A stretch of 52,949 nucleotides of DNA. Origin: a virus. Its lineage: Duplodnaviria; Caudoviricetes. The notes under the pieces were generated by a model. It was given only the letters and a program-made list of their open reading frames with translations. It ran no database searches and was not told the origin of the DNA. The DNA lies in IMG/VR virus record IMGVR_UViG_3300031841_001392, positions 1 through 52,949 of that record; one strand, written 5' to 3'. Positions 1 through 41,300 of this stretch are shown in pieces; position 1 is the first letter of the stretch; each line of letters begins with the position of its first letter. Made by a program: the position numbers and the translations under genes.

Positions 1-2212
1 CAAAACCAATAATTACATTATTGTTCCCTGTTTCTAGCGCATCACCTGCTGTTGCGCCCAAAAGCGTGTTGACCGTTCCCGTGGTGACTGCTTTACCTGC
101 TTGATCTCCTACTGCTGTATTGTAAGTATCCGTGGCAGTAGTAAAGTTTTGAGTACTAAGAGCCTCATTACCTACCGCAACCGAGGCGCTTCCTTTTGTA
201 TCTGTTGTTAATGACGCGTAGCCCAATGCCACATTATGAATTCCTGTGGTTAGGCTATCTGCCGCAAGGCCTCCAACAATGGTATTCTGAGTTCCCGTGG
301 TGACTGCTTTACCTGCTTCATAGCCCATCGCTACGTTATAAGTGTCGGTAGTGGTCGTAAAATTTTGGTTGAGTAAAGTTGAATAACCAACCGCTACACT
401 TCTGTCTCCTAACGTATCAGAGCTTAGCGCGTTAACTCCCATCGCCACATTTGAGTTTCCGCTAGTCAACGCATCACCTGCTAGACCACCGAGGAGGGTG
501 TTTCCGGCTCCCGTGGTGACTGAAGCGCCTGCATAGTAACCCAAAGCCGTGTTGTAGGAAATTGTTGCTGTAGTGAAGTTTTGTGAAGATAAAGTGGCAG
601 TGCCTACGGCAGTAGTTCCACTACCCAAGGTATCTCCACTTAAAGCCTGTATTCCTATAGCTACATTAAAATCAGCATCAGTAAGAGCATCACCAGCAAG
701 ACCGCCGACGAGGGTATTCTGGATTCCCGTGGTGACTGACAACCCTGCATGGTAGCCAACCGCGACGTTGTAGTTTGTTGTTCCGTCAGTAAAATTTTGA
801 GCTTCTAAAGCAGCCCTGCCGATTGCGACAGAAGCAATACCCGTTGTGTCTGCGGTTAAAGCACTATACCCCAAGACGGTATTTTGCTGCCCTGTGGTAA
901 GTGCATCCCCCGCGAGACCGCCCACCAAACTGTTCTGGACTCCCGTGGTGACTGAAGCGCCTGCGTTTGCACCTACGGCAGTATTGTAGACATCAGTAGC
1001 TGTCGTGAAGTTTTGAGCTGTTAAAGCAGATACACCTATTGCTACATTAGCTGATCCCTTCGTATCCGTACTTAGAGTATTATATCCTACCGCCACATTA
1101 TTAGCGGGAGTAGTCAGTGCATCACCCGCAAGACCTCCGATAAGGGTGTTCTGGGTTCCCGTGGTGATCAGATTACCTGCTAAAGTACCAACCGCAACAT
1201 TGTAAGCATCAGTAGACGTAGTAAAATTCTGCAAGCTAAGAGCACCTTGTCCTACTGCTGTAGATCTACTCCCTAACGTATCTGCGCCAAGCGCGTTTTG
1301 GCCTATTCCGACATTGCGACTGCCGGTAGTAAGTGCGTCTCCAGCGGCATATCCAACCGCTACATTGAAATCACCCGTAGTGATTGCCGTACCCGCTTCA
1401 TCTCCTATGACTACGTTTTGGTTGCCGCCAGACTCGATGCTGTTGCCTGCGTTGACACCTATACGGACGTTGGATGTGCCAGCGGATGCGGTGATTAGAT
1501 CCGCGCCATCTTCTATCGTTGTATCACCAGAAATAGCAACAGTGCCGTTGAAGTCGAGCGCGGTCGCCGTGAGATCAATCTCATCCGTCGCACCCAATGA
1601 CAGAACCGTCGCAGACGAGCCTTGAATGAACTGGCTCGCATCGTTAAACATGATTTTGTTCGTAGAGTTAAGCGTCAGGCCAGAGCCGTCTGTGTGCGTG
1701 AGCGTAGTGTCGCCATCTGCACCAAAGGTGATGACTGCGCTGTCAGAGGTGAACGTCAGGTCATCGTCAATAAACAAGTCTGGGATCGACAGGTCTTGGA
1801 AAGCATCAACCATCGCAGCGCCTGATCCAGCACCGTCGCTGTAAATCGCCTTTGTCTGACCATTGGCTATCGTGACGTTTGCGCCAGAACCTTGGCTGAT
1901 AATGATGTCTTGCGATCCGCTGGTTGCGTTCTCAATGAACCACAGCTTGCTGACCGTATTCGGCCCTATAGTGATGGTGCAAGTTGAATCAAGAGTGCCA
2001 GTATATTTGAGGAAGAGAGACCGGCCCGGATCAGAAGCCCCGTCAGCAATAGTAGTAGTATGAGTATCAGCATTAGTCGTAATAGCTTCTGTGCCAAAAC
2101 TAAATGCCTCACCTATCAACTCAAGGTTGGTATTTGTACTGGTTCCCCAAGTGCCTGCCTCATCACCAGTGGCAATCTCTTTGAGCCGTAAATCGTTAAC
2201 GTAAGTTGCCAT
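1..2212 (-). CDS. Tail fibre / receptor-binding protein, 3' end outside window; YadA-head-like beta-roll repeats
   Basis: Absent from the ORF track (no stop in window). ATG at 2212 directly follows the upstream TAA. Reads MATYVNDLRLKEIATGDEAGTWGTSTNTNLELIGEAF..., later repeats such as YNTAVGANAGASVTTGVQNSLVGGLAGDALTTGQQNTVLG. Confidence 0.88.
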   Translation of the reverse strand, partial: MATYVNDLRLKEIATGDEAGTWGTSTNTNLELIGEAFSFGTEAITTNADTHTTTIADGASDPGRSLFLKYTGTLDSTCTITIGPNTVSKLWFIENATSGSQDIIISQGSGANVTIANGQTKAIYSDGAGSGAAMVDAFQDLSIPDLFIDDDLTFTSDSAVITFGADGDTTLTHTDGSGLTLNSTNKIMFNDASQFIQGSSATVLSLGATDEIDLTATALDFNGTVAISGDTTIEDGADLITASAGTSNVRIGVNAGNSIESGGNQNVVIGDEAGTAITTGDFNVAVGYAAGDALTTGSRNVGIGQNALGADTLGSRSTAVGQGALSLQNFTTSTDAYNVAVGTLAGNLITTGTQNTLIGGLAGDALTTPANNVAVGYNTLSTDTKGSANVAIGVSALTAQNFTTATDVYNTAVGANAGASVTTGVQNSLVGGLAGDALTTGQQNTVLGYSALTADTTGIASVAIGRAALEAQNFTDGTTNYNVAVGYHAGLSVTTGIQNTLVGGLAGDALTDADFNVAIGIQALSGDTLGSGTTAVGTATLSSQNFTTATISYNTALGYYAGASVTTGAGNTLLGGLAGDALTSGNSNVAMGVNALSSDTLGDRSVAVGYSTLLNQNFTTTTDTYNVAMGYEAGKAVTTGTQNTIVGGLAADSLTTGIHNVALGYASLTTDTKGSASVAVGNEALSTQNFTTATDTYNTAVGDQAGKAVTTGTVNTLLGATAGDALETGNNNVIIGF
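20..1400 (-). repeat. About six 216-bp (72-aa = 17+17+17+21) tandem super-repeats within the tail fibre
   Basis: CCCGTGGTGA begins at 78, 294, 510, 726, 942 and 1158 (exact 216-bp period); QNFT and GGLAGDAL motifs recur at the same period. Confidence 0.92.
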
Positions 2213-2350
2213 TTATCTTCTCCGACTTTTCGTCTTAGGCTTTGGCTTGCTCATAGAGGCGACATGCTTCTTGAGCGTCTCAGCTTGCTTCTTGTGCGTC
2301 TTAGATGCCTTCTCTAAACCCTTAATAACCTTCTTTACTTTGCGTACCAT
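2213..2350 (-). CDS. Small Lys-rich protein (45 aa, MVRKVKKVIKGLEKAS...)
   Basis: ATG at 2350 overlaps the upstream stop (TAATG); stop abuts the fibre start. Confidence 0.7.
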   Translation of the reverse strand: MVRKVKKVIKGLEKASKTHKKQAETLKKHVASMSKPKPKTKSRRR

Positions 2351-3117
2351 TAGGCTACCTCTTCCCAGTTGGGTGTTTGAGACGTTGATACAGTTGACCA
2401 ACTAGGTGTTTGACTTGTTGAAATAGTTGCCCAGCTAGGCGTTTGATTGTCATCAACAAGCCCCCATACATTTGATGTGCCAGTGGCCCCAGTTCCTTCA
2501 ACACCCGTAACAGATACATTTGCATCAGCTGTAACAGTGACGTTGCTGACCGCTCCAATGCCTTCAACGCCTGTTGGAACAATCGTTTGGCCCAAGCCGA
2601 TAGTGACTGTACCAATTTGACCAGTGCCGGATACACCTGTTGGAGAAACGACTGCGGTACCAATAACCGTAACTGTTCCGACTGCACCCGTTGCTTCAAC
2701 ACCTGTAACGGAGACATTCGCATCGCCAGTGATCGTAACCGTGCCAACAGCGCCCGTACCCGCAACGCCAGTGACCGAGGCGTTTGCATCAGCACTGATC
2801 GTAACCGTACCAACCGCTCCAGTACCAGAAACACCAGTAACACTAACATTCGCATCAGCGGATACAGTAACCGTTCCCGCAGATCCAGTGCCTTCAACAC
2901 CCGTGACAGAGACGGTAACACCCGTTCCTTCGATGATCGTGACGGAGCCGATTGACCCTGTTGCAGAAACGCCTGTGACAGTGACATTTGCGTCTGCGCT
3001 GACTGTGACAGTCGTGACCGCACCAGTGCCTTCAACACCAGTAACGACGACAGGGTTAGCCTCGCCCCACGGGCCATCACCCCAAGCGCCTCTGCCCCAC
3101 CCATTAAGATCTGCCAC
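2350..3117 (-). CDS. Virion structural protein with ~22-aa Val/Thr/Gly repeats
   Basis: Repeated ADANVSVTGVxGTGAVGTVTI units, GWG-rich N-terminus, TPSW repeats at C-terminus; tail-region context. Confidence 0.75.
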   Translation of the reverse strand: MADLNGWGRGAWGDGPWGEANPVVVTGVEGTGAVTTVTVSADANVTVTGVSATGSIGSVTIIEGTGVTVSVTGVEGTGSAGTVTVSADANVSVTGVSGTGAVGTVTISADANASVTGVAGTGAVGTVTITGDANVSVTGVEATGAVGTVTVIGTAVVSPTGVSGTGQIGTVTIGLGQTIVPTGVEGIGAVSNVTVTADANVSVTGVEGTGATGTSNVWGLVDDNQTPSWATISTSQTPSWSTVSTSQTPNWEEVA

Positions 3118-3120
3118 ACG

Positions 3121-3375
3121 CTACTTCCTGTATCCAGCCGTCTTCTTGGCTATTTTTTTGGGCTGCTTGGAGTGTTGCTTGCCTTTTTTTGTGTCTGCCC
3201 TCTTCTTTCTGGAAGTGGCAGCGTACTCCTTGTCCGATAAAGCCTGTCTAGCCTTCTTCGGGAGATACCTTTCACCTGTCGCCTTCTTTCCTTGTGTAGA
3301 CGGTTTACCTGACTTGGTGCCCCAGTCTTGCTTCGTCCACTTCTTAAGGCTCTTTTGAGGCTTCTTCAATGGCAT
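3121..3375 (-). CDS. Small basic phage protein
   Basis: SLKKWTKQDWGTKSGKPS...TGERYLPKKA; translationally coupled in the late operon. Confidence 0.75.
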   Translation of the reverse strand: MPLKKPQKSLKKWTKQDWGTKSGKPSTQGKKATGERYLPKKARQALSDKEYAATSRKKRADTKKGKQHSKQPKKIAKKTAGYRK

Positions 3376-3587
3376 TACTTGTAACCACCGCCTGCATCTT
3401 TATAAGCCTTGGCTAACATTTGAGCTTTACGCGCCGACCACTGCCCCGGCTTGCCGCCTTTGCTTCCAGCCTTAATCCTATTGAATTGACGCTTACGCAT
3501 CTCAGGCTTGGTGTAGTTTCCAGCCTCGTTAACTCTAGACTTTGACTTCTTTTTTGCAGGCTTCTTTGCCGCTGGCATCTTAGGCAA
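3375..3587 (-). CDS. Small basic phage protein
   Basis: NYTKPEMRKR...GQWSARKAQMLAKAYKDAGGGYK; coupled to neighbours. Confidence 0.75.
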   Translation of the reverse strand: MPKMPAAKKPAKKKSKSRVNEAGNYTKPEMRKRQFNRIKAGSKGGKPGQWSARKAQMLAKAYKDAGGGYK

Positions 3588-9912: not shown

Positions 9913-10964
9913 TGTTTGCCCTCCTTAATGAGTTGCATCGCGTACTGTTCATTGGTAAGCCCGATTCGCTTGGCGAGAGCAATCTGGCTGGACGTTAGCC
10001 GTACTTTGCGCGGTTTGGCACCATTGCTCCTTGAGGAGGGTGCCACCACCGACGAGGGCTGATTAGCAGTCACGGGCGCGTTACGTCCATATGTATCGCT
10101 AGAGTCCTGCCAATCATAATCTGGGAATGCACTACGCATTCTTGAATCTATTCGTTGAAAATATTCAGGAGAGTTTGGTGCGACACCCTCCTGAACAGCT
10201 TTAGCATGAGCGCCGTAAGCAAGGCTTGTCATTTCTTCAAACCCCGGCTTCATAAACCACTCATTGCGAGAAGCCCAGTCTTGGGCCTCTGGCTCAACAG
10301 AGGGTTGTTGCGCCTGCTGCTGCGCTACAGCTTGTTCTCTTGCAAGCTGCTGCTGATAAACCTGTTGTTGATAAGCGTCATCCGCTACCGTGACAGGCTT
10401 GTTTGCGAGGCTTTGCTCATACTTACTGGCCTCTTGAAGCTCAGACTGCGCTCTCATTAAGCTTTCCTGAGCGGCAACTACGTTATCCGTATCACCCTCT
10501 TCGTAAGCTTTCTTGTACTCCTGCCTAGCAGATTCCAATGATAACTGAGCTTTGTCTTTAATCTGGCTGATCAAGGCCGCTTCACCGCGATTGATCAAAG
10601 ATTCATACTCTTTGTTCTTTGCGGTAACCGCTTGAGCGTAACTCACAGCCTCTTCACGAAGGCGCTCTGCCGCTTCTCGCTGTCGGCGCTCCTCGTTTTG
10701 TTCGTACCTAAGCTTGTTTATTCGCTTCTGTACACGCTCACTGTACCCAGAGAGTTCATCGTCATCGATATCGCTATCTGACGAACTAGCCTTTGGTGCG
10801 CGACGATCCTCTTCTGGGCGATCATCAACAATCTCTAACTCTAAGTCAGGATCAGTGATCGCCTCTTCGTTATCTGATGAGCGACCAATAGTTGTCTTTA
10901 CGCCGAAAAACTTATCCTCGGCTGAAGACTCTTGGAATCCCATCTCTTCTTGCATTTCGCTCAT
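9909..10964 (-). CDS. Capsid scaffolding protein
   Basis: Acidic N-terminus, long coiled coil (YSERVQKRINKL), C-terminal VRLTSSQIALAKRIGLTNEQYA; lies between portal and MCP. Confidence 0.75.
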   Translation of the reverse strand: MSEMQEEMGFQESSAEDKFFGVKTTIGRSSDNEEAITDPDLELEIVDDRPEEDRRAPKASSSDSDIDDDELSGYSERVQKRINKLRYEQNEERRQREAAERLREEAVSYAQAVTAKNKEYESLINRGEAALISQIKDKAQLSLESARQEYKKAYEEGDTDNVVAAQESLMRAQSELQEASKYEQSLANKPVTVADDAYQQQVYQQQLAREQAVAQQQAQQPSVEPEAQDWASRNEWFMKPGFEEMTSLAYGAHAKAVQEGVAPNSPEYFQRIDSRMRSAFPDYDWQDSSDTYGRNAPVTANQPSSVVAPSSRSNGAKPRKVRLTSSQIALAKRIGLTNEQYAMQLIKEGKQ

Positions 10965-11356
10965 ACCTTAACAATCCCCCTTGGATCTTCTACAACGGCT
11001 TCAACGCTATCGTCATTAATCAAACGGAACTCTTTGTCGTGAACCTTGAATCGTGTGCCAGAATAAGACCGCATTAAAATGAAGTCGCCTTCTTTGCAAG
11101 ACGGGCCGGATGGAAACCGCTGTGAGTCGCTGTATGCGTCTGGGCCTAATGCTAAGACCAGACCGACAATAGAGCCTACCTCTTCGTTGTGCAGGGTTTC
11201 AGTGGCTTTCAGTATGCCACCAGCCGTCTTTTCTTCAGGTTCAGGTAAAGCAATAAGTATTTTGTAACCTCTGGGTTGAGGCAACTGTTTTGCTTTGCGT
11301 GACTGCTCATCCCCTTCGGGGGCTGCGTCATCGTTAATTGCTAATGATTCGCTCAT
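10961..11356 (-). CDS. groES: GroES-like co-chaperonin
   Basis: PQPRGYKILI...EEKTAGGI...VLALGPDAY...GDFILMRSYSGTRF...FRLINDDSVEAVV. Start set at ATG 11356 (AGGA RBS) rather than 11401. Confidence 0.85.
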   Translation of the reverse strand: MSESLAINDDAAPEGDEQSRKAKQLPQPRGYKILIALPEPEEKTAGGILKATETLHNEEVGSIVGLVLALGPDAYSDSQRFPSGPSCKEGDFILMRSYSGTRFKVHDKEFRLINDDSVEAVVEDPRGIVKV

Positions 11357-11404
11357 TAGTAGTCCTATGCACTGGAAAAAAGCGTCCAGAGTCGCTTGCA
11401 CCGC

Positions 11405-14081: not shown

Positions 14082-14393
14082 CTATCCATTCTTCCCAAAC
14101 TTTTGAGAACGAGCAGCACCAGAGCCTCTGGCAACACCGCCGCCTTCCATCTTCTTGATTTTGGTGACACCGCCTGCTGCGTACATCTTTGAACTCATAC
14201 GCATCTTATTTGGCATGTTGTTTGGCATCTTTCCGCCAGCTTGGGCAAGAAACGCAGGAACCATTTCGCCGTCTTTTTCTGCCATCGGCATTTTGCCGCC
14301 ACCAGCATAGCCCTTAGACTTCATTTTGCCGCCACCGGCATAGCCTTTGGACTTCATCTTACCGCCAGCCATCATTCCTTTAGACTTCTTCAT
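14082..14393 (-). CDS. Small basic protein built of (M/Y)AGG repeats
   Basis: GGAGG RBS before ATG 14393; 33-bp tandem repeats encoding GKMKSKGYAGG. Confidence 0.7.
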   Translation of the reverse strand: MKKSKGMMAGGKMKSKGYAGGGKMKSKGYAGGGKMPMAEKDGEMVPAFLAQAGGKMPNNMPNKMRMSSKMYAAGGVTKIKKMEGGGVARGSGAARSQKFGKNG

Positions 14394-15069
14394 CGGAATC
14401 CTCCGCATATAAATTATCAAAAACCCTGTTCACATCCAGCGTGTAATCCAAATCCGACTTGCTGTAATGAATATGTTGAGACGGGCGAAAATCTGGTGCG
14501 CCCTCTCCTGTTTCAAACCAAGCTGGGTGAGTCACCCTAACTCGATTATTCGGTAACGCTACTATGTTCCCTGTATACGGGCCTGCCTCTAGTAGCTCCA
14601 TCACATGACTCTGCTTGTGTTGTGCGGGGTCATCTGCAATTTCGTTGTCTGTGTAGTCTACAGTAAACATGTACTTAGCAGGGTAGAACTCTCCGTCCAC
14701 CTTTGCCAGCCACGGACAGGGTGATGCCCTCTCCAACACATATACCGAATGATCCCGTGATGAGCAATCCCAAGGTTGCGCTGCATATACAGGCATCGGC
14801 TCAGGCCATTCCTCAAAAGGTGTGTCGCCTACCAGTGCGGTGATTGGCATTCTTGCCCACATCGCCCCGCCATGAACATTGGGTTCGTCGGTGTCGTATG
14901 TCTCTGCACCAGTAAATATCAACTGAAAACTCAGGCATCGCTTTGGCATTGTCGTGACAGCAATTGCCATCGCGTGAACAAATTCACCGTGATACTTAGT
15001 GTGATTGTGCGTGTATTCTTTTCTCACCCAGCACTTAAAGTACGGGATGTTGCTTTGAAGATATGGCAT
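14380..15069 (-). CDS. Conserved phage protein of unknown function
   Basis: YLQSNIPYFKCWVRKEY...HGGAMWARMPITAL...QPWDC...QHKQSH...ALPNNRVR. Confidence 0.75.
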   Translation of the reverse strand: MPYLQSNIPYFKCWVRKEYTHNHTKYHGEFVHAMAIAVTTMPKRCLSFQLIFTGAETYDTDEPNVHGGAMWARMPITALVGDTPFEEWPEPMPVYAAQPWDCSSRDHSVYVLERASPCPWLAKVDGEFYPAKYMFTVDYTDNEIADDPAQHKQSHVMELLEAGPYTGNIVALPNNRVRVTHPAWFETGEGAPDFRPSQHIHYSKSDLDYTLDVNRVFDNLYAEDSDEEV

Positions 15070-26703: not shown

Positions 26704-26968
26704 CCGGTTTTATCACCTCCTCCAGCAGATCCATCACCGCCCTCTTCCTTTCAACACCCCGCAACTGAGCAGCAGCCAAAGCTTGTTGCCTAAAGTCAGC
26801 ACTTACATTGAACGGCATAGTGATTGTCTCATCTGCAAAATATTGGATGGCACTGATTCTATCTCTTGAGGAATCTGAGTCGATATCTTTTACAGTTTGC
26901 ATAAAAATTCTTTTCTTAAGTTTTCTCCTGCGCTTTTTCCACGCAGATTTCTGCTCTCGGCTGATCAC
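26672..26968 (-). CDS. Hypothetical protein
   Basis: Fills the gap between RusA and primase; start uncertain. Confidence 0.45.
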   Translation of the reverse strand: MISREQKSAWKKRRRKLKKRIFMQTVKDIDSDSSRDRISAIQYFADETITMPFNVSADFRQQALAAAQLRGVERKRAVMDLLEEVIKPARNIPVQEDS

Positions 26969-27290
26969 GGTCTAACCCCCAAAAAATGTGTTTTTGTTTC
27001 ACCTGCCTGTCGTTCTCATAAATCTTGTCCTGCATGCAGTCTAGGATTACCGATTCATCCAGATCAGGTCTTCTCGTTGCATAGAAAATATTCATGGTCA
27101 CCGACAGATCCCCCTCCAGAAGCTTTGGTAGTACAGGGCATTGCTTGGCAAACGTGTCTACATAATCCCTAGCCTTCTTGCTTTTGATGAACGCAGTCTT
27201 CCCCCGAATCGTCACAAGCTTTCGGCTATTTGCTTTCGATGCAGGTTCACCATAAATTGTGAACTGTACTGTTGTCAATGTATACTCCAT
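26916..27290 (-). CDS. rusA: RusA-like Holliday junction resolvase
   Basis: FTIYGEPASKANS...RRPDLD...ILDCMQDKIYENDRQV; start may be TTG 27278. Confidence 0.8.
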   Translation of the reverse strand: MEYTLTTVQFTIYGEPASKANSRKLVTIRGKTAFIKSKKARDYVDTFAKQCPVLPKLLEGDLSVTMNIFYATRRPDLDESVILDCMQDKIYENDRQVKQKHIFWGLDRDQPRAEICVEKAQEKT

Positions 27291-27732: not shown

Positions 27733-28038
27733 ATGTTCAAGATCGAAGACAGTCCTAAGCCACCCTCGAAAGAATCTCTATTGAGGATTGAGGTTATGGA
27801 GACCATAGCAGCGTTGAAGGCCGGTCAGCACTTTGATGTGCCTTATGACTACGAAGGCCTTGGCAAGGTTCGGGTTGTGAGCTGTGTCAACAACTACGTC
27901 AGCCAGTTCAGAATTGGGCAGGGTAAAGACTGTCCGTTCATTTACAAGGTCACTAACTGTAAAAAGGAAAAAGGCGGGTACTCTCGCGTTTCCATGCACA
28001 AGTGGCACAAAGTTCTACCACAACACGAAATACGATGA
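27733..28038 (+). CDS. Probable paralog of the preceding protein
   Basis: AGGAG RBS before MFKIEDSPKPP...LKAGQHFDVP...YSRV. Confidence 0.55.
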   Translation: MFKIEDSPKPPSKESLLRIEVMETIAALKAGQHFDVPYDYEGLGKVRVVSCVNNYVSQFRIGQGKDCPFIYKVTNCKKEKGGYSRVSMHKWHKVLPQHEIR

Positions 28039-28916
28039 AGATTACTAACCAGTTCAACCTCCCTGATGTCGTTGTGGATGCATTGCTGCAAGATGATTAC
28101 ACCAAGGGCAGGTCAAACAGGTCTGTTACAAGCCTTATCGACAGCCCCCGTGTAGCGATATTGCAGCGCAATAACGAACACCGGATAGAGCAGGATGTCG
28201 TGGATTTCCTGTGGTCTCGGTTCGGCACATCTGTTCACGGCATGTTTGAGAAGGCGGTAGCCAACAATGAGCATGCCAACGTGATATCAGAGGAACGCAT
28301 GTACGCCGAGGTCAGGGGTTGGACGATTAGCGGTGCTGTTGATTTGCAGGAAGTGTATGACGATGGCGTACTGATCAGCGACTACAAAGTCACATCAGTG
28401 TGGTCTGTCATTCATGACAAGACTGAGTGGCACAATCAACTGAACGCATATGCTTGGCTTGTTCGCTGGTCTAAAGATTTACCAGTCAAGGGGCTAAGGA
28501 TCATTGCAATCCTGCGTGATTGGCAGAGGCGTAAAGCCCAGATGGAGGCAGACTACCCTAAGTCGCCAATCCATATTGTCGAGATACCCTTGTGGTCAGA
28601 GGACGATGCCGACAAGTACATACGAGGACGGGTGAGGCTTCATCAGGAGGCTGAGTACGACTATCTGGTCAGTGGCAGCGATCTACCGGCCTGTACAGCC
28701 GCTGAGAGATGGGAGAAGCCAACTACCTATGCTGTACTCAAAAAAGGCCGTAAACGGGCTGTGCGCGTTCTGACAACGAGAGAAGAAGCTGAGGCCTACA
28801 TCGAACCACTTGGCACAGGCCATGCGATAGAGGAGAGGCTTGGTGAGTCAACCCGATGTTCGCAAGACTGGTGCCGTGTAGCGAGGTGGTGTGATCAATT
28901 TCAAATGGAGTCTTGA
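28035..28916 (+). CDS. PD-(D/E)XK Cas4-like exonuclease
   Basis: SVTSLIDSPR, FGTSVH, ISGAVD, ISDYKVTS, QLNAYAWL, C-terminal Cys cluster; ATGA overlap start. Confidence 0.85.
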   Translation: MKITNQFNLPDVVVDALLQDDYTKGRSNRSVTSLIDSPRVAILQRNNEHRIEQDVVDFLWSRFGTSVHGMFEKAVANNEHANVISEERMYAEVRGWTISGAVDLQEVYDDGVLISDYKVTSVWSVIHDKTEWHNQLNAYAWLVRWSKDLPVKGLRIIAILRDWQRRKAQMEADYPKSPIHIVEIPLWSEDDADKYIRGRVRLHQEAEYDYLVSGSDLPACTAAERWEKPTTYAVLKKGRKRAVRVLTTREEAEAYIEPLGTGHAIEERLGESTRCSQDWCRVARWCDQFQMES

Positions 28917-29396: not shown

Positions 29397-30119
29397 ATGG
29401 AAAATGACGTATCGCTAGGCGATATCTGGGCCACCCTTTACCCAGTGAAATGCAACGAGTTTGCAAAGAAGAAAAACGGGTTGACCTATTTGGCTTGGAA
29501 CGAGGCTTGGCGGCTGCTCATGAGCCACTACCCTACCGCTCATTACGAGTTCGGGGAGAACGAGGTTCATGCTGATGGCTCGCAAACAGTTCACTGCACA
29601 GTAGCTATCGCAGGCCATGCACGGCACATGTGGTTGCCGGTCATGGACTACAAGAACAAGGCTATACCTAACCCCAACGCCCGTGATGTCAGCGACACAA
29701 AGATGCGCTGCTTGGTTAAGACCATTGCAATGTTCGGGCTAGGGTTCCATATATTTCAAGGGCAGGTTCAGCCTGAAGACACATGGGACGATTCCACAGA
29801 AGAGGCGAAAGAAGACAAGCCCGTCGCTGAAAAGCCGGTTGCCAAGAAGCCTGCTGCAAAGAAGCCAGAGCCAGAGTTTGACGATGATGACTTCTTTTTC
29901 ACCGATACTCAGGAGGGTGCAGACCACTGGGTAGATCGGTTAATCGAAACGGTGAACGGGCTGGTGGAGACCAAGAAGGGTCTACGCAGTATCTGGGATG
30001 GAAATAAGAAGGCGGTGGACAAGCTACAGGCTGAGTACCCCGAATCTTACAAACGATTGGCTGACGTTATGAAAGCCAAGCAAGACGAACTAAAGAAGAA
30101 GGAGTCCGAAAATGGATAG
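29397..30119 (+). CDS. Single-strand annealing protein, Sak3/DUF1071 (Rad52-like)
   Basis: LTYLAWNEAW...MWLPVMDYKNKAI...MRCLVKTIAMFGLG. Confidence 0.85.
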   Translation: MENDVSLGDIWATLYPVKCNEFAKKKNGLTYLAWNEAWRLLMSHYPTAHYEFGENEVHADGSQTVHCTVAIAGHARHMWLPVMDYKNKAIPNPNARDVSDTKMRCLVKTIAMFGLGFHIFQGQVQPEDTWDDSTEEAKEDKPVAEKPVAKKPAAKKPEPEFDDDDFFFTDTQEGADHWVDRLIETVNGLVETKKGLRSIWDGNKKAVDKLQAEYPESYKRLADVMKAKQDELKKKESENG

Positions 30120-32080: not shown

Positions 32081-32300
32081 GGAAAGTGTTGAAGAGTTCC
32101 TTGCCCGTGGTGGCAAGATACAGGAAGTGCCTTTTGGCGAAATTACCATCAAAGATCCAAAGCTCGGCAACCATGGCCCAAGCAAAGTAACTGCTCAGGC
32201 GCACATAAGAGCTAGTCAAAAGCGTGAGCAGAAGAAAGACAAAGCCAAATCCAAGGTTAAGGTGTTTGGGTTCAACAGGCCCAGCCCTAAAAAAGATTAG
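32073..32300 (+). CDS. Small phage protein (VEEFLARGGKIQEVPFG)
   Basis: GAGGAG RBS; converges on and overlaps the end of the giant gene. Confidence 0.6.
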   Translation: MSKESVEEFLARGGKIQEVPFGEITIKDPKLGNHGPSKVTAQAHIRASQKREQKKDKAKSKVKVFGFNRPSPKKD

Positions 32301-35300
32301 ATATCCTGTTAGCTATAGTCTCTGTTGCCGTGGGCAGTTCTATATATCTTTCTAGCTGCGGGACGATGCTCAGATAGTACTGCTCTTGAGTATTGATAAA
32401 TCTCATCTGCTCCTGCTTCTGATCTGCCGTCAGGTCAGACTTCAACAACGTTCTACGCTGCTTCCTGAGATCTGCAAGCGCACTGGCTGTAGGCTGTAGC
32501 TGCTTCCTCAGACCTATGAATTGCTTTTTATTTACCAAGAAACTCTCAAGCTCATCAAACCTACCTTGGTCTTGCAGAAGCTTGGCTGCGTTCTCGGTAC
32601 GCTTAATGTAGTCCCACATCTCGTAGAAGTCTTCTTTGTTACCGCCACCAAACTCACTGGCAAAGAATCTTCGTATGATCGGATACTGAGAGACATCGGT
32701 TCCAGCAAGCACCGCTCTGTTGTCTCCTTGAAGAAAGCTGTCTCTCAATCCGTAATCAGCCATGCCCAAGATATAAGATCCAATCGTGCCGCCATAACCT
32801 TTCATCAAATGATCTAGTTTGATCGGGCTGATGCCCAAGACCTTCGCCATATTCTTGGCAACCTCCGTTGTAGAGGCAAGCTCTTGAAGCTCTGGTGGCA
32901 ATGATGAATCTATAAATACGGGAGTTACAGGCCTGCCTGTATAGAGGTCGTAGTTCATGTACGCCTCCATAATTGGAGTTACTGCCTGTGGAGGCTGAAC
33001 ACCAAGCGTTCCAAACACTGCTCGGCCTATTGATTGCTGCGCCTCTCTGGCGGTGGTGCCTTCGTTGTAAGAGTCAATGATCCGCTCAGGCAGCGTCTTG
33101 AAAATAAGGCCAACCTCAAACGGGATTGGAATTCTAACCGGCACACCAGACGGTGTTGGTATAAGCCAGTAGTTGTCTTTTATTTCTTCGGTCTGCTCTT
33201 TGTACTGCTCATCATCACTAACCATTGTGTAGTAAATGGCTGTGCTCGCAGCTATCAAAGATCCTCTGGCGATAAAGCTCATGGCTGCCTGAGAGCGTGA
33301 CAAGTCTCTGTTGGCAGAGCTTTTGCCTGTACCGGCCCGTGCAAGGACATCTAAGCCTTGTATCCTAGCGTTCAAGAAAGGAATCGTTGCTGTAACCAAA
33401 CGCATAACAGGGCTGCTGCCACGGCGACCAAAGTTCAACACTTCCATCGCTTGATAGCTGGCTTCTGCCTCATTACCTGTACGGGCTAATACATCGTTGT
33501 AAACAGCGTTTCTAGTAGCAGCGTCTGAGCGAGTTGTCGCTTGACCAAGAAGATCCCAACCGCCGATAAAGAATTTACTAAGAAGCCCTCTTTGATCTAC
33601 ATTCTTGTTTCTTTTTTGAAGTATCTTTCCTGCGTACTCGCCAATGTTTTCTGGGTCATTCTTGTAGTCATAACCGCCTACAACACCTGTCCTCTCAAGC
33701 TTCTCCATTCCTTCAGCGTAACCAGCAATGGTATCGGCTATTGGCACAAAGCTAGACCCAGAAGTGACGAATGCAGACAGCGAGTCACGCAGCATGTTTG
33801 CAATAACAAACCCCGGCTCCCGTGTAACCATCTCTCGCAAAAAACGGGATGGGAAACCCAGTATCTTAGAAACTTCACGCTCTACACCACCAGCAGGCTC
33901 AACAGTCAACGACTCATATATTAACGGGTCATCAACAATGAACTTACGTCTATTGCCGTTGACTTTGAAGGTGACAACAGCCTCGCCTGTAGTGTTCTGT
34001 CCCGGCTTGACCTCTCTTGCTAGGCCAATGTTTCTCATATCCCTGACAATGCGTTGCTGGGCAACATTCTTCATGCCCATGCTAATCGCTGCGTTCAGGT
34101 TCATGGATATTGCTTCCAAGAGCGGCACGTTAACTTCTTTTTCGCTGCCTTTGATTGCCTTTAGGTCTGCGCTTGCAGTCAGGCCGCCAAAGATGTTCGG
34201 CGCGTTTGGAGTGTCGGCACCTTCTACTTGACGATAGAAAGGCACATAGTCTGACTGGTCTTGCCACATCTCTGCGGTCTCTGCATCAACAACACCCGTA
34301 TCTTTGAGAAACTGAACGGTGTAGCCGTTGTAGTCTTGCCAAGCGTCATACCAGTCCTTGATTATTGAATTGCCATTCTCATCCAAGAAAGACTCTGCGG
34401 TTGCAATGTTAGCTGCATGATCCGCCGGGGTTCCCGGTACAGCTATGCCTTTTGCTCGCAAACGCTCGGATCTCTTAGCTATTGAGTAGGCCTGAGCCAT
34501 TTGCTCAAGAGACCCATGCTCCTTGGTGTACAGCATGGACATCAAATCTATGAGGCCTCTAATTTTTTTGGTTTCGCCCCGACTGTTGGTGTGGTTGAAA
34601 TCCGCTATCTTGGTCATACCGCCTGTGTACACAGGGACACCGTACTGAAGAGCGGCTGCGGTTATCGCATTAGATCTGTCAGCCATCAGAGCGGCAGCCA
34701 AAGACGATGAGTCAGCAAGCAAGTTGCCAAGCATGCCTTGGTAGTTTTCTAGCTGGGCATACCTATTGACCGCTGCCTGTTTAGCCTTGGTCAACCACTT
34801 GGCTATCGGCCCTTGATCTAAGACGTTGAGATAGGTCTGTCCGGGGGTATTCGTGGGTAGGTCTGCAACAACATTGTCTATTGCAGCCTGAGCAGCGGGG
34901 TTTATCTCTGGCGCGTTAGACCTAGAGAATGCAGGCATTTCACTATCTGAAAGCTCTTGGCCTTTGTCTGGGTCGGCTGCTACAGCTTGTGCATATCGGT
35001 CTGCGCCGGGATTAAACCGTGGCACCGTGCCTGCGGGACGATTCTCTGCTATTTGTAGATTGTCAGCTACAACACGGTCAACTTCGCTTTGACCTATGAC
35101 CTCTCTGCGCTTGTATTTATCAAGCAGGTTGAATGGAAGCCCTACGTCTTCAGTCTGTACCTCTCTGGCAGCATCGCCTCTTCCTCTGCGCCTAGAGGCT
35201 GAGTCGGGTCTCGGTCTGGGTACGCCGCCATCAGATAGTTTTCTCTCGTAAGTGGCTGCTTGGTCGCCTTCAGGTATCCCTCCGTCAGATCGTTCCCAGT

Positions 35301-38300
35301 CGGGCGGCTTGATTTGTCCTGCATGTTCATAGATGGCCTCTCTAGCCTGATCCAGCGTTATTTGCTTCTTATTATACTGCTTCCATATATTGTCTACAAC
35401 TTCCACATTACTGTTTTGAGACTTGTACTCTGGTCGGAAAAGGCCTCTGACCGCTTCCCATGTAATGGACTGCATCTCTCTAGGTAAAACACCGCGCTCC
35501 TTAGCAGCACGGCGGTAGGCCTCCTCGTAGATTGAGTACACGCCGTTTAGGCCCGTAATACTTGACGATGAACCCTTCGTTCCAAAATTGTGAGAAACCT
35601 CAAATGCACTGCCGCCAAGAGGCTTAAGAAGTCCTGCCGCAACAGCATGGGTGTCTATGGTTACATAGCCAAGATCCGAGTCTGGATCGAATATGTTGTT
35701 GTAAAAGTTTCTGACTTTGTTTGCCGAACCAAGCGATGCAGATATGGTGTCAATGTCAGTTTCTCTTAGGGCTTTAATTGACTTGGCTATCTCAGTTAGA
35801 GACCCCCAAGCCACCTTAGAGTTGCTACCGTCAGAATTCTTTGCGTAGTCGAGAAGTCTGCCGTCAGGGGATACAATCCTGTAGCTAGGGTCGTTATAGG
35901 TCTGGTCAAAAGTCCTGATCCACATAGCGCCTAGCTGCTCACCTTGCCCCGGCTCATTGAATTTATCCAGTACTTGATCAAGGGAGCTAGAGCCTATCAG
36001 ATTAAGCATCTCACGATTTCTGGCTTGACCCTTGGCGCTTATGCCATCATGAAAGAATATTTCTTCGGCGCGAGCTTTCATCTCAGGAGTAAAAGGCTGC
36101 CCTGCGTGATCAAAGAACGTATCAATAGTTCTCTCTGCGAGCGAGGCGTTTTGATACCAGTCCTTTTGCGGAGACAGGTTGGCTGCAACAGCAGCAGCTT
36201 GTTGCATGGTTAAGTTGTGACGTTCTGCAAATCTACGGACTAAAGCGTTTGCGCCTTTGTACCAAACCTTCGAGTTATTACGGGTATCAGCCGGAACCCT
36301 GTCATATATATTGAGCAGATTATTCTTAACAAGCTCAACAAATGCCTCTGCTTTTTGTTTATCTGATCTTAGGTCTTTTGATTTCTGCAGTATCGGATAG
36401 AGGTTAGCGTCTTTGATAAGCTCCATGTTCTTGCCAAAGACCTTGCCGTCAGCAAGAAAGGTTTCGTAGTCATTGACTAGTAAGTCTTCAAGAGGGTCTT
36501 CTTTTGATCTGGCGGCTGTGGGGTATCGGGTACTTACATTACCCTCTATACCGCCCTGTTCAGCGGCTCGCCTAGAGAACATGGGTGATTCTTCAAAGCC
36601 GTCCCTGCCTTCACGGGATGTCCACTCAGGCATCAAGCCCATCTTCTGGTCAGCAAAGACGGTGTCTAGTACACCAGCTCCTTGGTTTTGCTCGCCATAT
36701 GGGCCGTAGTTCAGCCAGCTATTTTGCCCCCTAGTCTCAGACGTAAGTGCCTGTAACGCTGGGCCAGTGAATAGTTTGGCGTGTGCCTGCCATGCATTTT
36801 CCTCACCGCGAGCGCGGAATCCAGCACCTTCTATGCCGTGACCAAATGCGTCATGTACAGCCCTGAATAAGTCGTTGTTGGTGACTATTTGCTCTCGACC
36901 TAGCTGATCTTTCCATCGCAACCCTGTGTCACGCAACATAACCCTGTTTGGATCGCCTATATCGTTATAGAAGTCATCTAAGGTGCCGTAACCGTCATAA
37001 GTGCCATAGACGGACATGCGCTTGTTGCTGCGCAAGTCCCGCATTGCGTTGTACGGGTTGCCGTCATAAGGGTCTGTGTCTGAATCATAGAAATCAAACT
37101 CAAAACCTTCGTCAATCAAGGCATCGTATTGGTTGCGTGTTTGCCTAGCCAGATCCTCATAAGCATCCCTAACATTAGGATCAGTGGGATCATCAGCCAT
37201 CTCCTCATAAGCCTGCGCTATCCGAGTGGCTCTCTCTGGGTCTACCCTTACATACTCCGATTGTCTGGCAAGCGGGATGCCATAGGTCTCTGCATATCGC
37301 TCTGCTGCGGCATTGATTGCTGGGTCTGGCCCCGTGGCCCCTGCCCTGATCGGCGCTCCTTCGAGCGGCGTTCTGCTTGCACCCTGATCTTCTGTCGGCG
37401 CAACGCTTCGTGCCTGATCGCGTCCTCTTCCGTCTCTTCCGCGTTGGGGTCGTACATTATCACCTCCAAGGTTTGATATGTTTCTGGCAACGATGCCTTT
37501 AGTGCCTGACGCATCAATAGGTTGTGCTAACTGCTCAGGATCAATCATTTCGTAAAGAAACTTTGATTGCCCCGACTTGATATCAAACTTGCTGCCTTCA
37601 GGTACAAGATGTTGGTCTCTTGAGTCGGCAAACTCTACTTCGCCAACCTCAATAGGCTCTCCTACAGTGGCGTAACCAACAAGTTTTGCAGGCCCAGAAC
37701 CTGTCTCCACTATGCCAATACGCTTACCCACATAGGGGCGCAGCGAGTCTTTGTCGCGTGTCTCGTATTTTTTCTGACCGCTGACAATTAACTCAGCATA
37801 GTTAGTATCTCCATCAGTTCTGACGTTGATACCCATCTCAGCTTCTGTTGGCGCTCTGCGAGAAAACAGCGTTTCAAACTGCTCGCCACTTGGCAGAACA
37901 TTTTTTGTTGCGTTCTTGGCTAATACTAACGGGCCAACCTGTATTACTTCTTCAGCAAAGGTTACTGGCTCGCCGGTCTTTCTGTCGTAGAAGTATGAGT
38001 GTCTTCTTGGATCAAAACCAACCTGAACCCAGTCTGGAGAGTTAATGAATTCCTCTGCAAGTGATGCTGTTTGCTCCGGGTCTCTGTTTACAAAGTCTCC
38101 CATGATTTGGGCAAACGGAAACTTGTTTTTTCCCTCCATAACGGAACGAGCGTCTTCTTGAAGGTTTTTAGGGTCTCTTCCCGCTCTTTCTCTAAGCATG
38201 GTGAAATCAGCATTTTTGATTGATGCTGTAGCCATGTGAGATATCGATTTGCCTTTCTGGTCGTGAATCGTTGGCACCCAAGTGCCAAAGTTTTTGTATG

Positions 38301-41300
38301 CGTTGATATCTAATCTAAGACCAACGCGAGACCCATCAGGAACCTCTGCGTTTATTTTGTCTTTCTGGCTTTGAACAGCTAAAGCCTCAAACATCTCTTC
38401 TGTAGTGGCAGGCTCTGGAACAAAGTCATAAGGCTCAATTGTTCCCAGAACAACAGAATCATATTGCTGTCTGGTAAATTCCCCTGACTGCAATTTTGAG
38501 TAAGCATCGGCAACTTCAGGCCTAACCTCTGTTTGGGGAGCGCCTACAGCCCTTCTGCTAAAATCGGGAACAGACTGACCCTGCATCGCTGCGTCACGTT
38601 CTGCCTCTTCGCCGGTGGTGATGACTGTGCCGGGGGGTGGTTTGGCTAGGGTTCTAGATGCGGCCTTCTCTGTTTGAGCAAAGGTTCTTATCTCACCTCT
38701 CTGTCTACCACCTATGGTGCCTGAGCCTATGCCGCCGATAACCTCGCTGAAGGTATTGAACTGCTCGCCTCTAAGGGCTGAGACCATGTTCCTAAAGAAC
38801 CTAGCTATGCGCTCTACAAGGGATCTTGGCTTGCCCTGTAAAAGTTTACTGTCTTCTCTTGCTCGTCTGACTAGCTCGGCAACAGATTCTTCTACCTGAT
38901 CTACTGGGCTTAAGTCATTGTAGTTGTTTTGCGCCCACTTGAGGAATGTCTGTGGGTTGCCATCCCTGTCTTTGGTGGGGTGTATCTTTTTGCTTGCCGC
39001 CCTTGAGAGAAGATTCCATTCTTTGTTGGTGAACAGATCCAGCTTACGCATGGCATGGATCATTTCGTGATCTAGAAGAGCCAGCAATTCTGCCTCTACC
39101 TGAGCATCTGTCAGGGTTTTACCCTGCATAGCTTTGTCTATTGACAAGAAAATAGTATTTATTCTCGGGTCGTAGTAAGCCTCTGCTCTGTCCTCTGGGT
39201 CTGCCTGATCAGACCGAACAAGCTGGTACTTGGCCTCTCTAGCTAAAGCGGCCTCACCACCAATCACATCTGCATCTATATCGCCGCCCTGTCTAGGCCT
39301 TATGCCGTAAACAAGATTGCCCAGAGGATCTTTGACCGCTGTCCTGAGCGCATAATCTAGGCTTAGGCCAACGTCCTTCAAACCAAACCCTGTCATCACC
39401 TTCTTGATTGCAGAGCGTAATCGGTCAACGTCTACCGATGGCGCAGGCAGAGCGAGTGTTTCTTGTTGCTGCTCCACCACAGTCTCAACCGGAGCAACCG
39501 GCTTCACACCCTGCTTGGCAATGTCCTTACGCAACTCCTGCATAGACTCAGCGCCACTCTTGGTCGCTATATTTATACCTGTAGCGTCAGCTAGGGCTAA
39601 CTCGCCTGCATTCGGATTTTCTTGCAGGGTTTGGACAGCAGCACGGAACTGCGCCCCTGTGTACTTGGGCAGCTTGAATGTGGGCAGCTTGGTAGGCTTG
39701 TCAAATCGTGGCAGTGATCTAAGACGTTGATATAGCAGCCTAGCCTCAGCAACAGACAGATCGTTTATCGACTTGATAGTCTTCTTGCCAAGAATCCTAG
39801 ACGCAAGGTACTTGACCTCTGGAGACCCCACCTTGGAGGTTATGTTCTTTGCTTCCAACAGCGACTGCATCTCTTGGAAGTTGCCATCGACGTTACGCAT
39901 AACACCTTTTTCGACGGCAGCCTTGCCAGTGGCGTTGTTTAGTTGGTTGGCATAGACCCTAGCATCAGCCTCGGTCTTGAACTTGACCAGCTTAGGCGGC
40001 TTCTTCTTGGGGTTTGCCTTGATCTCAGCGTCTTTCTCTAGGACGGTCAGAGGCCTGCCCTGAAGCACCTCGCCTGCGCTGCTCCTGATAATAGGGTTGC
40101 CAGCTTTACTAAGATCAGCGTTGTACGTTTCTGTCTCTGGAAGACCATTTACCCGTGTATCGGTAAGGTTATATAGCTGGTCTTCTTTCAGTACGCTTCT
40201 GACTTCTTCAATGGTGAAGTTGTTTGTTACTGGCAGACCCTTACGCAGACGCTTCGCGTTGATGCGCTGAGAGGCAGTCATCTTGGACGGCCCTACACGG
40301 TTTTCTACCAGTGTTTTGACATCAGCAACCTCATCAAAACCACGGTCTTGTGTGGTCTCTGCTGCGCTATCTACGGCAACAGATGTGTAGGTGTTGGAGT
40401 CTGGGTGATTTACAGCGAAGTTGTAGGCTTGAAGTGTAGAAGCTTGATCTGTGTCATACGCTTCTGGAGATGTGGAGATAACAGCGTCACCGGCAGAAAA
40501 GACGTTGTCGTTGATGATTTCGTCATTAAGAAACCCAGCAAGAGCGAAGGCATCTTCTGAGTTGTTGAGTGGTATGCCGAACTGCTGACCAGAACTGTCT
40601 TGTACAGTAAAGACGGGAACGCCAGTCTCATCTAGCTGCGTGGTGTCTCCTAAAGCACCGCCAAACTCTTGTGGCAGGTTAACGGTAAATGAGTTGTCTG
40701 CTGACGGGAAACTATCACCCATTGTCTGGCGTATCTGTTGGGCATAGGCAAGCATCGGCTGTTTCGGGTATCGCCTTTGAATGCCTGCGGTAGGCTCTGC
40801 GACAGTGGTGATCTGCAAACCTGTCTGCTGAGGCACACCATTTACAGAGGTAATCACCTCGCCGCCACCGGGAACCTCAACAAAGGTTGTGACCTGCTCT
40901 GTAGGCTTACCCTTGTTTCTTATTCTGGTCTTTTCTTCTGCTTGAAAGGTCTGTCCTGATGCATCAGATATGTTAACTATTCTTGCGGGAGTCTTTAACT
41001 TGGTTGTGAGCGCCCTGCCTGTAGGTGGAGCTATCTGAGCGGGATCTACCTCTGCTCCAGCAGCCTGCCTACGGGCCTCAGCGGCAGCCTTTACGTCTAG
41101 ATTAGACTGAGCGTCTATACGAGCTTGTTCTGCAAGGTCTTTGGGTAGGTTTGCCTGTCTTTGATTCTGGGCATCTTCTAGGTCTTCTCTTTTCTTTCTC
41201 TCTGCTTCTTCTGAGGACTTGAAGGCATCTTTGTTGCGCCTTCCAGCTACAGCGTTCAAGACTAAGTCAGCGCCTGCGCCGATAGCACCGCCTACGGTGA

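Follow-up and report, generated by a model that had tools for sequence, protein, structure and literature searches.

Why should a short piece of DNA keep its letters at strict intervals inside a gene whose repeats have otherwise drifted far apart? The question is raised by the tail-fibre gene at one end of IMG/VR virus record IMGVR_UViG_3300031841_001392 (Duplodnaviria; Caudoviricetes), a linear record of 52,949 bp with an estimated completeness of 95%, which was analysed whole and is called the window below. The distal part of this gene is an array of 72-amino-acid (72-aa; 216-nt) units, each of which opens with the same 11-bp word. We think it likely that the word serves as a microhomology anchor, through which the diverged 216-nt fibre units recombine in register.

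The word, TCCCGTGGTGA on the plus strand, is found exactly at window positions 77, 293, 509, 725, 941 and 1157, with a period of 216 bp and all six copies direct. There are no further exact copies in the whole 52,949-bp record and none on the opposite strand; the nearest other match, the sole one with a single mismatch, is at 14753. A shuffle control for word matches gave a mean of 0.61, and none of 100 shuffles reached 7. In the mRNA of the fibre gene, which is a minus-strand gene, the word becomes xTC ACC ACG GGA, encoding (V/I)TTG at the opening of each unit (fibre protein positions 348, 420, 492, 564, 636 and 708), and five of the six copies extend to TCCCGTGGTGACTG. The 216-bp spacing, the extension in five copies and the fixed wobble bases in all six are as described in an earlier, sequence-only reading of the window.

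Around the word the units differ widely. DNA identity among the five complete units is 56–67% and third-position identity 31–56%, near saturation. Of their 28 degenerate columns with an invariant amino acid, 7 also have an invariant codon, and the four-fold columns among these are the word's T, T and G together with one Ala (GCA) four codons upstream. At an LTTG-type position 17 codons downstream of the word, codons and residues both vary, again as first described. The longest in-register identical run contains the word in all 15 unit pairs and is 11–28 nt long; the next longest identical runs measure 7–13 nt. For the first two copies on the plus strand the sequence-only reading had given a shared run of 27 bp, and the long run is indeed present, although its measured length is 28.

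How much of this conservation the protein requires can be gauged from relatives. A protein-based scan of IMG/VR confirmed 596 relatives, from which 80 loci were kept, and a DNA scan for two words 216 bp apart yielded 79 stretches. With the unit profile rotated to centre the word, 748 full-length ungapped units (546 unique) were cut from the open reading frames (ORFs). Only protein-selected loci were used for the statistics, so that selection on the word itself was avoided; they comprise 288 unique units from 58 loci. TTG is encoded in 255 of the 288, ACCACGGGA is present in 99 and the exact 11-mer in 84, where background codon use (ACC 0.18 × ACG 0.14 × GGA 0.23) predicts about 1.5 occurrences of ACCACGGGA. 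Codon use at the word is 70% ACC, 72% ACG and 56% GGA, codons that rank among the least used in the rest of the units. The codon entropy of the two Thr columns, 1.12 and 1.26 bits, is lower than that of any other among the 28 four-fold columns listed. Values for the remaining 26 lie between 1.51 and 1.95 bits; they include the word's Gly column, which is mid-range (1.67 bits) and prefers GGA (56%, against 23% outside the word). The base before the word is A across differing amino acids (GCA, TCA, CAA, TTA and GAA), so that the conserved unit is better described as the 14-mer CAGTCACCACGGGA.

Codon choice across the family shows a constraint that acts on the word at the nucleotide level, beyond the needs of the protein. 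This agrees with the proposal made from the window that DNA or RNA rather than protein is constrained, and synonymous conservation, which on that proposal should exceed that of other conserved motifs, is strongest at the Thr columns of the word. The description of the word as invariant holds in the window, where all six copies are exact, and fails across the family, where fewer than a third of the units carry the exact 11-mer. TerL was found in all five word-bearing relatives compared and is only 51–59% identical at the protein level, so the word is not kept by recent ancestry.

Selection on translation, in the form of a rare-codon pause or of accuracy at a critical turn, might be thought to fix the codons of the word, given that the main word uses rare codons and that TTG is among the best conserved residues. 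Against this, the word has two different Thr codons, its place is filled in other lineages by the commonest codons (ACA ACA GGT), equally invariant Gly columns have no codon preference, and the preceding base is retained whichever amino acid its codon specifies. Codon selection also does not predict the breakpoints described below, and we consider it highly improbable as the cause.

While the position of the word is constant, its letters can differ between what seem to be exchange groups. At the same codons, RTAACCACAGGY is found in five loci (L083, L104, L109, L119 and L158) and GTCACAACAGGY in three (L129, L130 and L132), in each case uniform inside each gene. The probability that two units share a codon at columns 36–38 is 0.82, 0.70 and 0.77 within a gene and 0.68, 0.51 and 0.56 between genes. 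At 28 other four-fold columns tested the corresponding ranges are 0.26–0.49 and 0.27–0.42, with a difference of at most 0.08. Judged by this sharing of codons, the word columns are in local concerted evolution.

Third-position GC is also raised around the word, at 0.70–0.73 in its first three codons and 0.48–0.71 at columns 41–45, the five codons starting at the second codon after it, compared with a mean of 0.31 outside columns 36–45. Over all units this island of G/C-ending codons covers unit phase 108–137 (columns 36–45), with a mean third-position GC of 0.56; column 41 uses CAG, while the other conserved Gln column uses CAA at about 10:1. Annealing stability or GC-biased conversion could lie behind the island. 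Three distant fibres from cultured phages, HTVC111P gp52, Venkman gp55 and CRP-7 gp48, were also compared for repeated words. Their most repeated 10–12-mers fall on an xTTG or NNTT motif, and these words, for example TAACACAACAGG, are present in 4–6 copies, use common codons and are irregularly spaced.

A nucleotide-level constraint might equally act on the mRNA, if a hairpin that tunes translation speed or stability were formed in each unit by the word and the GGU GAU / CUU block downstream of it. RNAalifold with the six units does pair GUCACC with GGUGAU and CGGGA with UCUUG, and fixed G partners are available to the wobble C or T found at columns 36 and 37 in 84% and 89% of units. Yet the consensus structure reaches only −8.65 kcal/mol, its covariation term is positive, a compensatory change is seen in 1 of 19 pairs, and the six segments fold no better than shuffles (z −0.40 to +0.72). 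At 13 of 14 pairs, the fraction of the 288 units that are paired is what independence of the two bases would give; the one departure is an enriched T–A cell at positions 119/143, perhaps due to lineage. In about one-third of units an A stands as the free wobble partner of ACG, and the alternative lineage words break the helix without compensation. A search of window 1–2400 against Rfam gave no match at E ≤ 1. With folding at the level of shuffles and pairing at the independent expectation, RNA structure was rejected as the main cause, and we regard the hairpin as very unlikely.

If the word serves recombination, natural fibres should rejoin there. To map where they do, 115 non-redundant fibre ORFs were compared all against all by megablast; tracts were high-scoring segment pairs (HSPs) of at least 150 nt with at least 90% identity, and the boundary of each was placed at the first position with at least 4 mismatches in 12, walking outward from the tract. 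The word occupies phase 106–119 of the unit. In ungapped mapped units, counting unique ends, 37 of 53 3′ tract ends (phase 108–131) and 30 of 41 5′ tract ends (phase 102–119) lie at the word. Under a uniform-breakpoint null, in which the same rule was applied to diverged unit pairs with uniformly drawn starts, 12% of 3′ and 10% of 5′ ends do so, an excess with binomial probabilities of 2e-22 and 2e-21, respectively, when independence is assumed. Clustering of similar contexts leaves 37 of 52 and 29 of 40 ends at the word. In the alignments, near-identity persists up to and through the word and then falls at once to ~55–60%. The window and one relative (L116), for instance, are 97% identical over 382 nt, a tract that ends through word copy 1 (coordinates in Table 1) and is followed by ~55% identity. 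Indels of units were found with lengths of 216, 318 and 432 nt, and all three have junction overlaps of 22–62 nt containing the word. Tract breakpoints and unit-indel junctions are thereby shown, in these alignments, to cluster at the word, which is the pile-up that the sequence-only reading had suggested looking for. Raw HSP ends gave a second peak ~40 nt downstream, at phase 150–167, which was discarded as an artefact because BLAST extends through the conserved GGxAGD block; it was gone once boundaries were set at the first dense mismatches.

Metagenome runs belonging to 10 studies of seawater, marine and estuary samples contain the fibre DNA of the window. For four runs, each of a different study, Logan contigs were aligned to the window; such contigs are informative on junctions, not on their frequency. 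Four listed pieces end inside the array and continue into unlike sequence, and their ends, at 91, 76, 1167 and 1157, are all word edges. At word copy 1, pieces from another sample end or begin at 1167 and 1157, and at word copy 6, pieces from other samples end at 91 and begin at 76. Near word copy 4, a contig of run X15 passes from position 504 to 1157 with 4 intervening letters and so is shorter by 648 nt, or 3 units. Loose ends at 1119, 672 and 703 are off a word edge by 20–55 nt, on the 3′ side in mRNA sense, where local alignment can continue through the conserved block.

Borders of this kind might be made by assemblers that switch strains at the shared word. The relatives are all metagenome contigs, and many of them, the window included, end inside the array. 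On the other hand, the shared run of 11–28 nt is shorter than the Logan overlap of about 30 seen here, and usual final assemblies use k-mers longer than such runs. Identical arrays also recur in different metagenomes (L099, L100 and L117 in one case, L112 and L115 in another), so the assembly is reproducible, and synonymous conservation is not something that chimeras can create. Assembly chimerism is, in our judgement, barely credible as the source of the mosaic borders.

The location of the word in the protein bears on whether selection on the fibre itself might place the junctions. An AlphaFold2 model of three units, built from a 79-row in-register alignment (mean predicted local distance difference test score 80, predicted TM-score 0.73), has a short strand about every 17 residues, and the array is predicted to fold as a β-solenoid. 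Foldseek with the unit model returned nothing at E ≤ 0.001; the best rows were the trimeric-autotransporter heads CbpF and BoaA (E 0.09–0.25, TM 0.33–0.45) and left-handed β-helix enzymes. The YadA head family (Pfam PF05658) gave no match at E ≤ 1 and a sequence search of the PDB gave no match, while Atlas neighbours carry the name YadA-like head with a score of 0.99, which is an automatic label only. Distant relatives at 28–39% identity are fibres of cultured pelagiphages, roseophages and cyanophages.

If only recombinants with whole 72-aa units fold and function, breakpoints at unit borders would reflect protein-level selection, and the shared letters of the DNA word would follow as a side effect, for instance of local conversion, without determining where crossovers fall. 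VTTG begins the structural repeat of the predicted solenoid, the breakpoint phase is the same in both partners in 33 of 37 (3′) and 25 of 30 (5′) in-zone events, and the partners are often one base apart inside the word, all of which such selection would accommodate. It leaves unexplained, however, the four wobble bases and the preceding base, kept as they are in otherwise rare codons, and the boundaries keep to within a few nt of the edges of the word instead of spreading over the conserved AGxxVTTGxQN peptide. Selection for whole units may thus contribute to the placement of the surviving junctions, and we judge it unlikely to be the explanation of the word.

Several observations weigh against the word as a recombination anchor. 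Whole-unit selection alone could also put breakpoints at unit borders. Among the ends in ungapped units, 16 of 53 at the 3′ side and 11 of 41 at the 5′ side are away from the word. In gapped or partial units, for which the phase is approximate, only 7 of 33 and 3 of 19 fall in the zone; most of these events are in the first degenerate unit, which differs in profile register, and several such tract ends in relatives come directly after the ACTACGGG copy of that unit. A further 70 3′ and 52 5′ ends are in the N-terminal domain, where they are uninformative on phase, and stand outside the counts. The canonical 11-mer is present on both sides of the comparison in just 7 of 37 and 9 of 30 in-zone events; at least 10 of 11 letters of the word are alike in 26 of 37 and 22 of 30. 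The breakpoint events are partly non-independent because the contigs are related, and the relatives are metagenome contigs throughout. A run of 11–14 nt is short for RecA-type recombination. Finally, the exonuclease and Sak-like annealing protein encoded in the window are not supported as partners of the word, as homologues of each are found in none of five near-complete word-bearing relatives.

Even so, the clustering of breakpoints and the three indel junctions at the word support its reading as a crossover or conversion anchor. Recombination would take place inside one genome and between co-infecting related phages. The word is the only identical run, of 11–14 bases and up to 28, that is common to every one of these ~60%-identical units, and annealing or crossing-over would for that reason resolve there. 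The products would be in frame, with blocks of whole 72-aa units swapped, lost or gained. We infer the upkeep of the word, the enzyme and the effect on host range as follows. The word may persist through a self-reinforcing drive, in which units that carry it continue to undergo exchange and heteroduplex correction; instead of this, or on top of it, lineages that keep the word may adapt their fibres faster. The reaction would be ordinary relaxed homologous recombination by phage or host recombinases, with no dedicated site-specific enzyme. The exchanged units would affect host recognition, on the assumption that the 72-aa units bind the receptor.

A search of the 63 window ORFs against PHROG families identified candidate recombination genes (Table 1). 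Since the exonuclease and annealing protein are present here and missing from all five relatives, the structural and the replication/recombination modules appear to have different histories. No integrase, invertase or reverse transcriptase PHROG was matched at E ≤ 1e-5; many of the ORFs are unannotated, so the absence of a recombinase is not proven. The window also has two HNH-like candidates, an endonuclease-like protein of 470 aa and the product of a small ORF.

These HNH-like proteins leave some room for the word to be the recognition or cleavage site of a dedicated phage or host enzyme that starts programmed cassette shuffling. The conservation of the word is sharp-edged, with no gradient, and lineage-specific words could mirror a co-evolving specificity. 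The PHROG search, by contrast, offers no integrase, invertase or reverse transcriptase for the task, the word is confined to the array with six direct copies, and the exonuclease–Sak module does not accompany it in the five relatives. A dedicated enzyme is in our view distinctly unlikely. We give similarly little weight to a broader form of this idea, in which the word would act in cis for a programmed generator of diversity: at every unit border, DNA would be nicked or paired by a sequence-specific nuclease or annealing factor of phage or host origin, co-infecting marine phages would exchange 72-aa cassettes at high frequency, and the word dialects of the exchange communities (TCACCACGGGA, TAACCACAGGY and GTCACAACAGGY) would be compatibility tags. 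If it were true, this would be a third built-in diversifier of fibres besides diversity-generating retroelements (DGRs) and invertase switches.

Coordinates of the fibre gene, the word copies and the recombination genes are collected in Table 1. The fibre gene matches PHROG 4636 (tail spike protein, E 2e-47) and two virion structural PHROGs, and a Pfam search of the protein found no family above cut-off. Its first ~229 residues are 86–92% identical in many contigs with differing distal parts. The closest cultured match, for the N-terminal part only, is the tail-fibre gene of Roseobacter phage CRP-902, with 66% DNA identity to window 1714–2188. The repeat array begins at fibre residue 276, and its last unit is truncated where the contig stops. 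The conserved N-terminal domain gives way to the variable array at the degenerate word (xTx ACT ACG GGT) or at most ~25 nt after it, and many high-identity N-terminal tracts end at this border. Window position 1 is a contig end inside the array; contigs of two runs (X10 and X18) reach past this first base, so the missing C-terminal part of the fibre is present in public data.

Table 1. Positions of the fibre gene, its word copies and candidate recombination genes in the window
Feature	Position	Strand	Basis or remark
Tail-fibre / tail-spike gene	2–2212	minus	ORF, 737 aa, 3′-open; C-terminus cut off by contig end
N-terminal part of fibre, aa 1–275	1388–2212	minus	kept among relatives
Array of 72-aa (216-nt) units	2–1387	minus	1 degenerate + 5 complete + 1 cut unit
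Degenerate seventh word copy, ATC ACT ACG GGT	1376–1387	minus	at border of N-terminal part and array
Word copy 1 (mRNA order), ATC ACC ACG GGA, ITTG	1157–1167	minus	exact match
Word copy 2, CA GTC ACC ACG GGA	941–954	minus	exact match
Word copy 3	725–738	minus	exact match
Word copy 4	509–522	minus	exact match
Word copy 5	293–306	minus	exact match
Word copy 6	77–90	minus	exact match
RusA-like resolvase	26916–27290		PHROG search of window ORFs
Exonuclease	28002–28916		PHROG search of window ORFs
Sak-like single-strand annealing protein	29397–30119		PHROG search of window ORFs

Several neighbouring genes have features of their own. The gene directly upstream of the fibre (2350–3117, minus strand, 255 aa) has no PHROG match and contains a 66-nt (22-aa) tandem repeat at 2698–2859, of the type TGVxGTGAVGTVTVSADANVSV. 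Three small ORFs between the fibre and other tail genes (2213–2401, 3121–3375 and 3375–3587, minus strand) are very rich in lysine and arginine, and two of the three match PHROGs of unknown function. The 3283-aa product of a giant ORF (32287–42138, minus strand) matches only unknown-function PHROGs (9854, 18222, 3842 and others), and the ORF is followed by several large structural ones. Inside the structural module are a ferredoxin-type PHROG 3704 of the auxiliary metabolic category (14380–15069, minus strand) and a GroES-like co-chaperonin, PHROG 3188 (10961–11401, minus strand).

Host range is set by tail fibres, and little is understood of the ways in which abundant marine phages vary theirs. 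The word marks where natural fibres rejoin, in a family with hundreds of members in seawater viromes. If it is a recombination anchor, it would provide a sequence signature for finding receptor-binding genes prone to shuffling and a natural design rule for in-frame chimeric fibres. It would also be a clean case in which to ask whether sites of evolvability are kept by selection or by the recombination process itself. Synonymous sites in such fibre genes are not neutral, and assemblies tend to break at the word, as the contig of the window did.

Among known systems, antigenic-variation cassettes such as the 17-bp direct repeats of Borrelia vlsE and the mini-cassettes of Neisseria pilS use short conserved borders to guide segmental exchange. 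They draw on silent donor loci and a single bacterial expression site, whereas here all units are in one expressed ORF and the donors would be sister units or co-infecting phages. The Gin, Cin and Min invertases and the Rci shufflon of R64 act at sites inside fibre or pilus genes and swap C-termini in frame, for which they need a recombinase and inverted sites; the sites here are direct, and no such recombinase PHROG is found among the 63 window ORFs. DGRs give phage fibres a built-in variation of the receptor-binding protein, but no reverse transcriptase match is present here, and the divergence past the word affects all sites, including synonymous ones, and is not adenine-specific. Nor does the word resemble a Chi-like hotspot, an oriented motif enriched genome-wide, since within the 52.9 kb it is found only in the array. 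Within the limited collection and terms searched, we found no paper on a periodic, synonymously conserved word in a fibre repeat.

Rad52-like phage recombinases are reported to carry out relaxed recombination of diverged sequences via short identity and so to produce phage mosaics (De Paepe et al. 2014, PMC3945230). The window likewise encodes an exonuclease, a Sak-like annealing protein and a RusA-like resolvase. The mosaics of that study are gene-scale, in contrast to the periodic intragenic anchor of the fibre array, and all five word-bearing relatives differ from that system in being without the exonuclease and Sak-like module.

In the adhesins of T-even phages, exchanges in or near short conserved motifs, the His boxes of gp37 and the glycine-rich motifs of gp38, lead to chimeric adhesins (Tetart et al. 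1996, 1998, as cited in Trojet et al. 2011, PMC3157838). Judged against that account, there as here short conserved motifs separate hypervariable segments of the receptor-recognition protein, and in the marine fibres the junctions of natural chimeras lie at the motif. The fibre array, from a podovirus-like marine phage, departs from the T-even case as described there in the strict 216-nt period of the motif within a tandem array, and in an anchor of 11–14 nt that is conserved at synonymous sites in otherwise rare codons and exists in lineage-specific versions. Whole 72-aa solenoid units appear to be exchanged, and their number changes. The shuffling of T-even adhesins at conserved motifs is the closest precedent, and the fibre array would be a variant of it.

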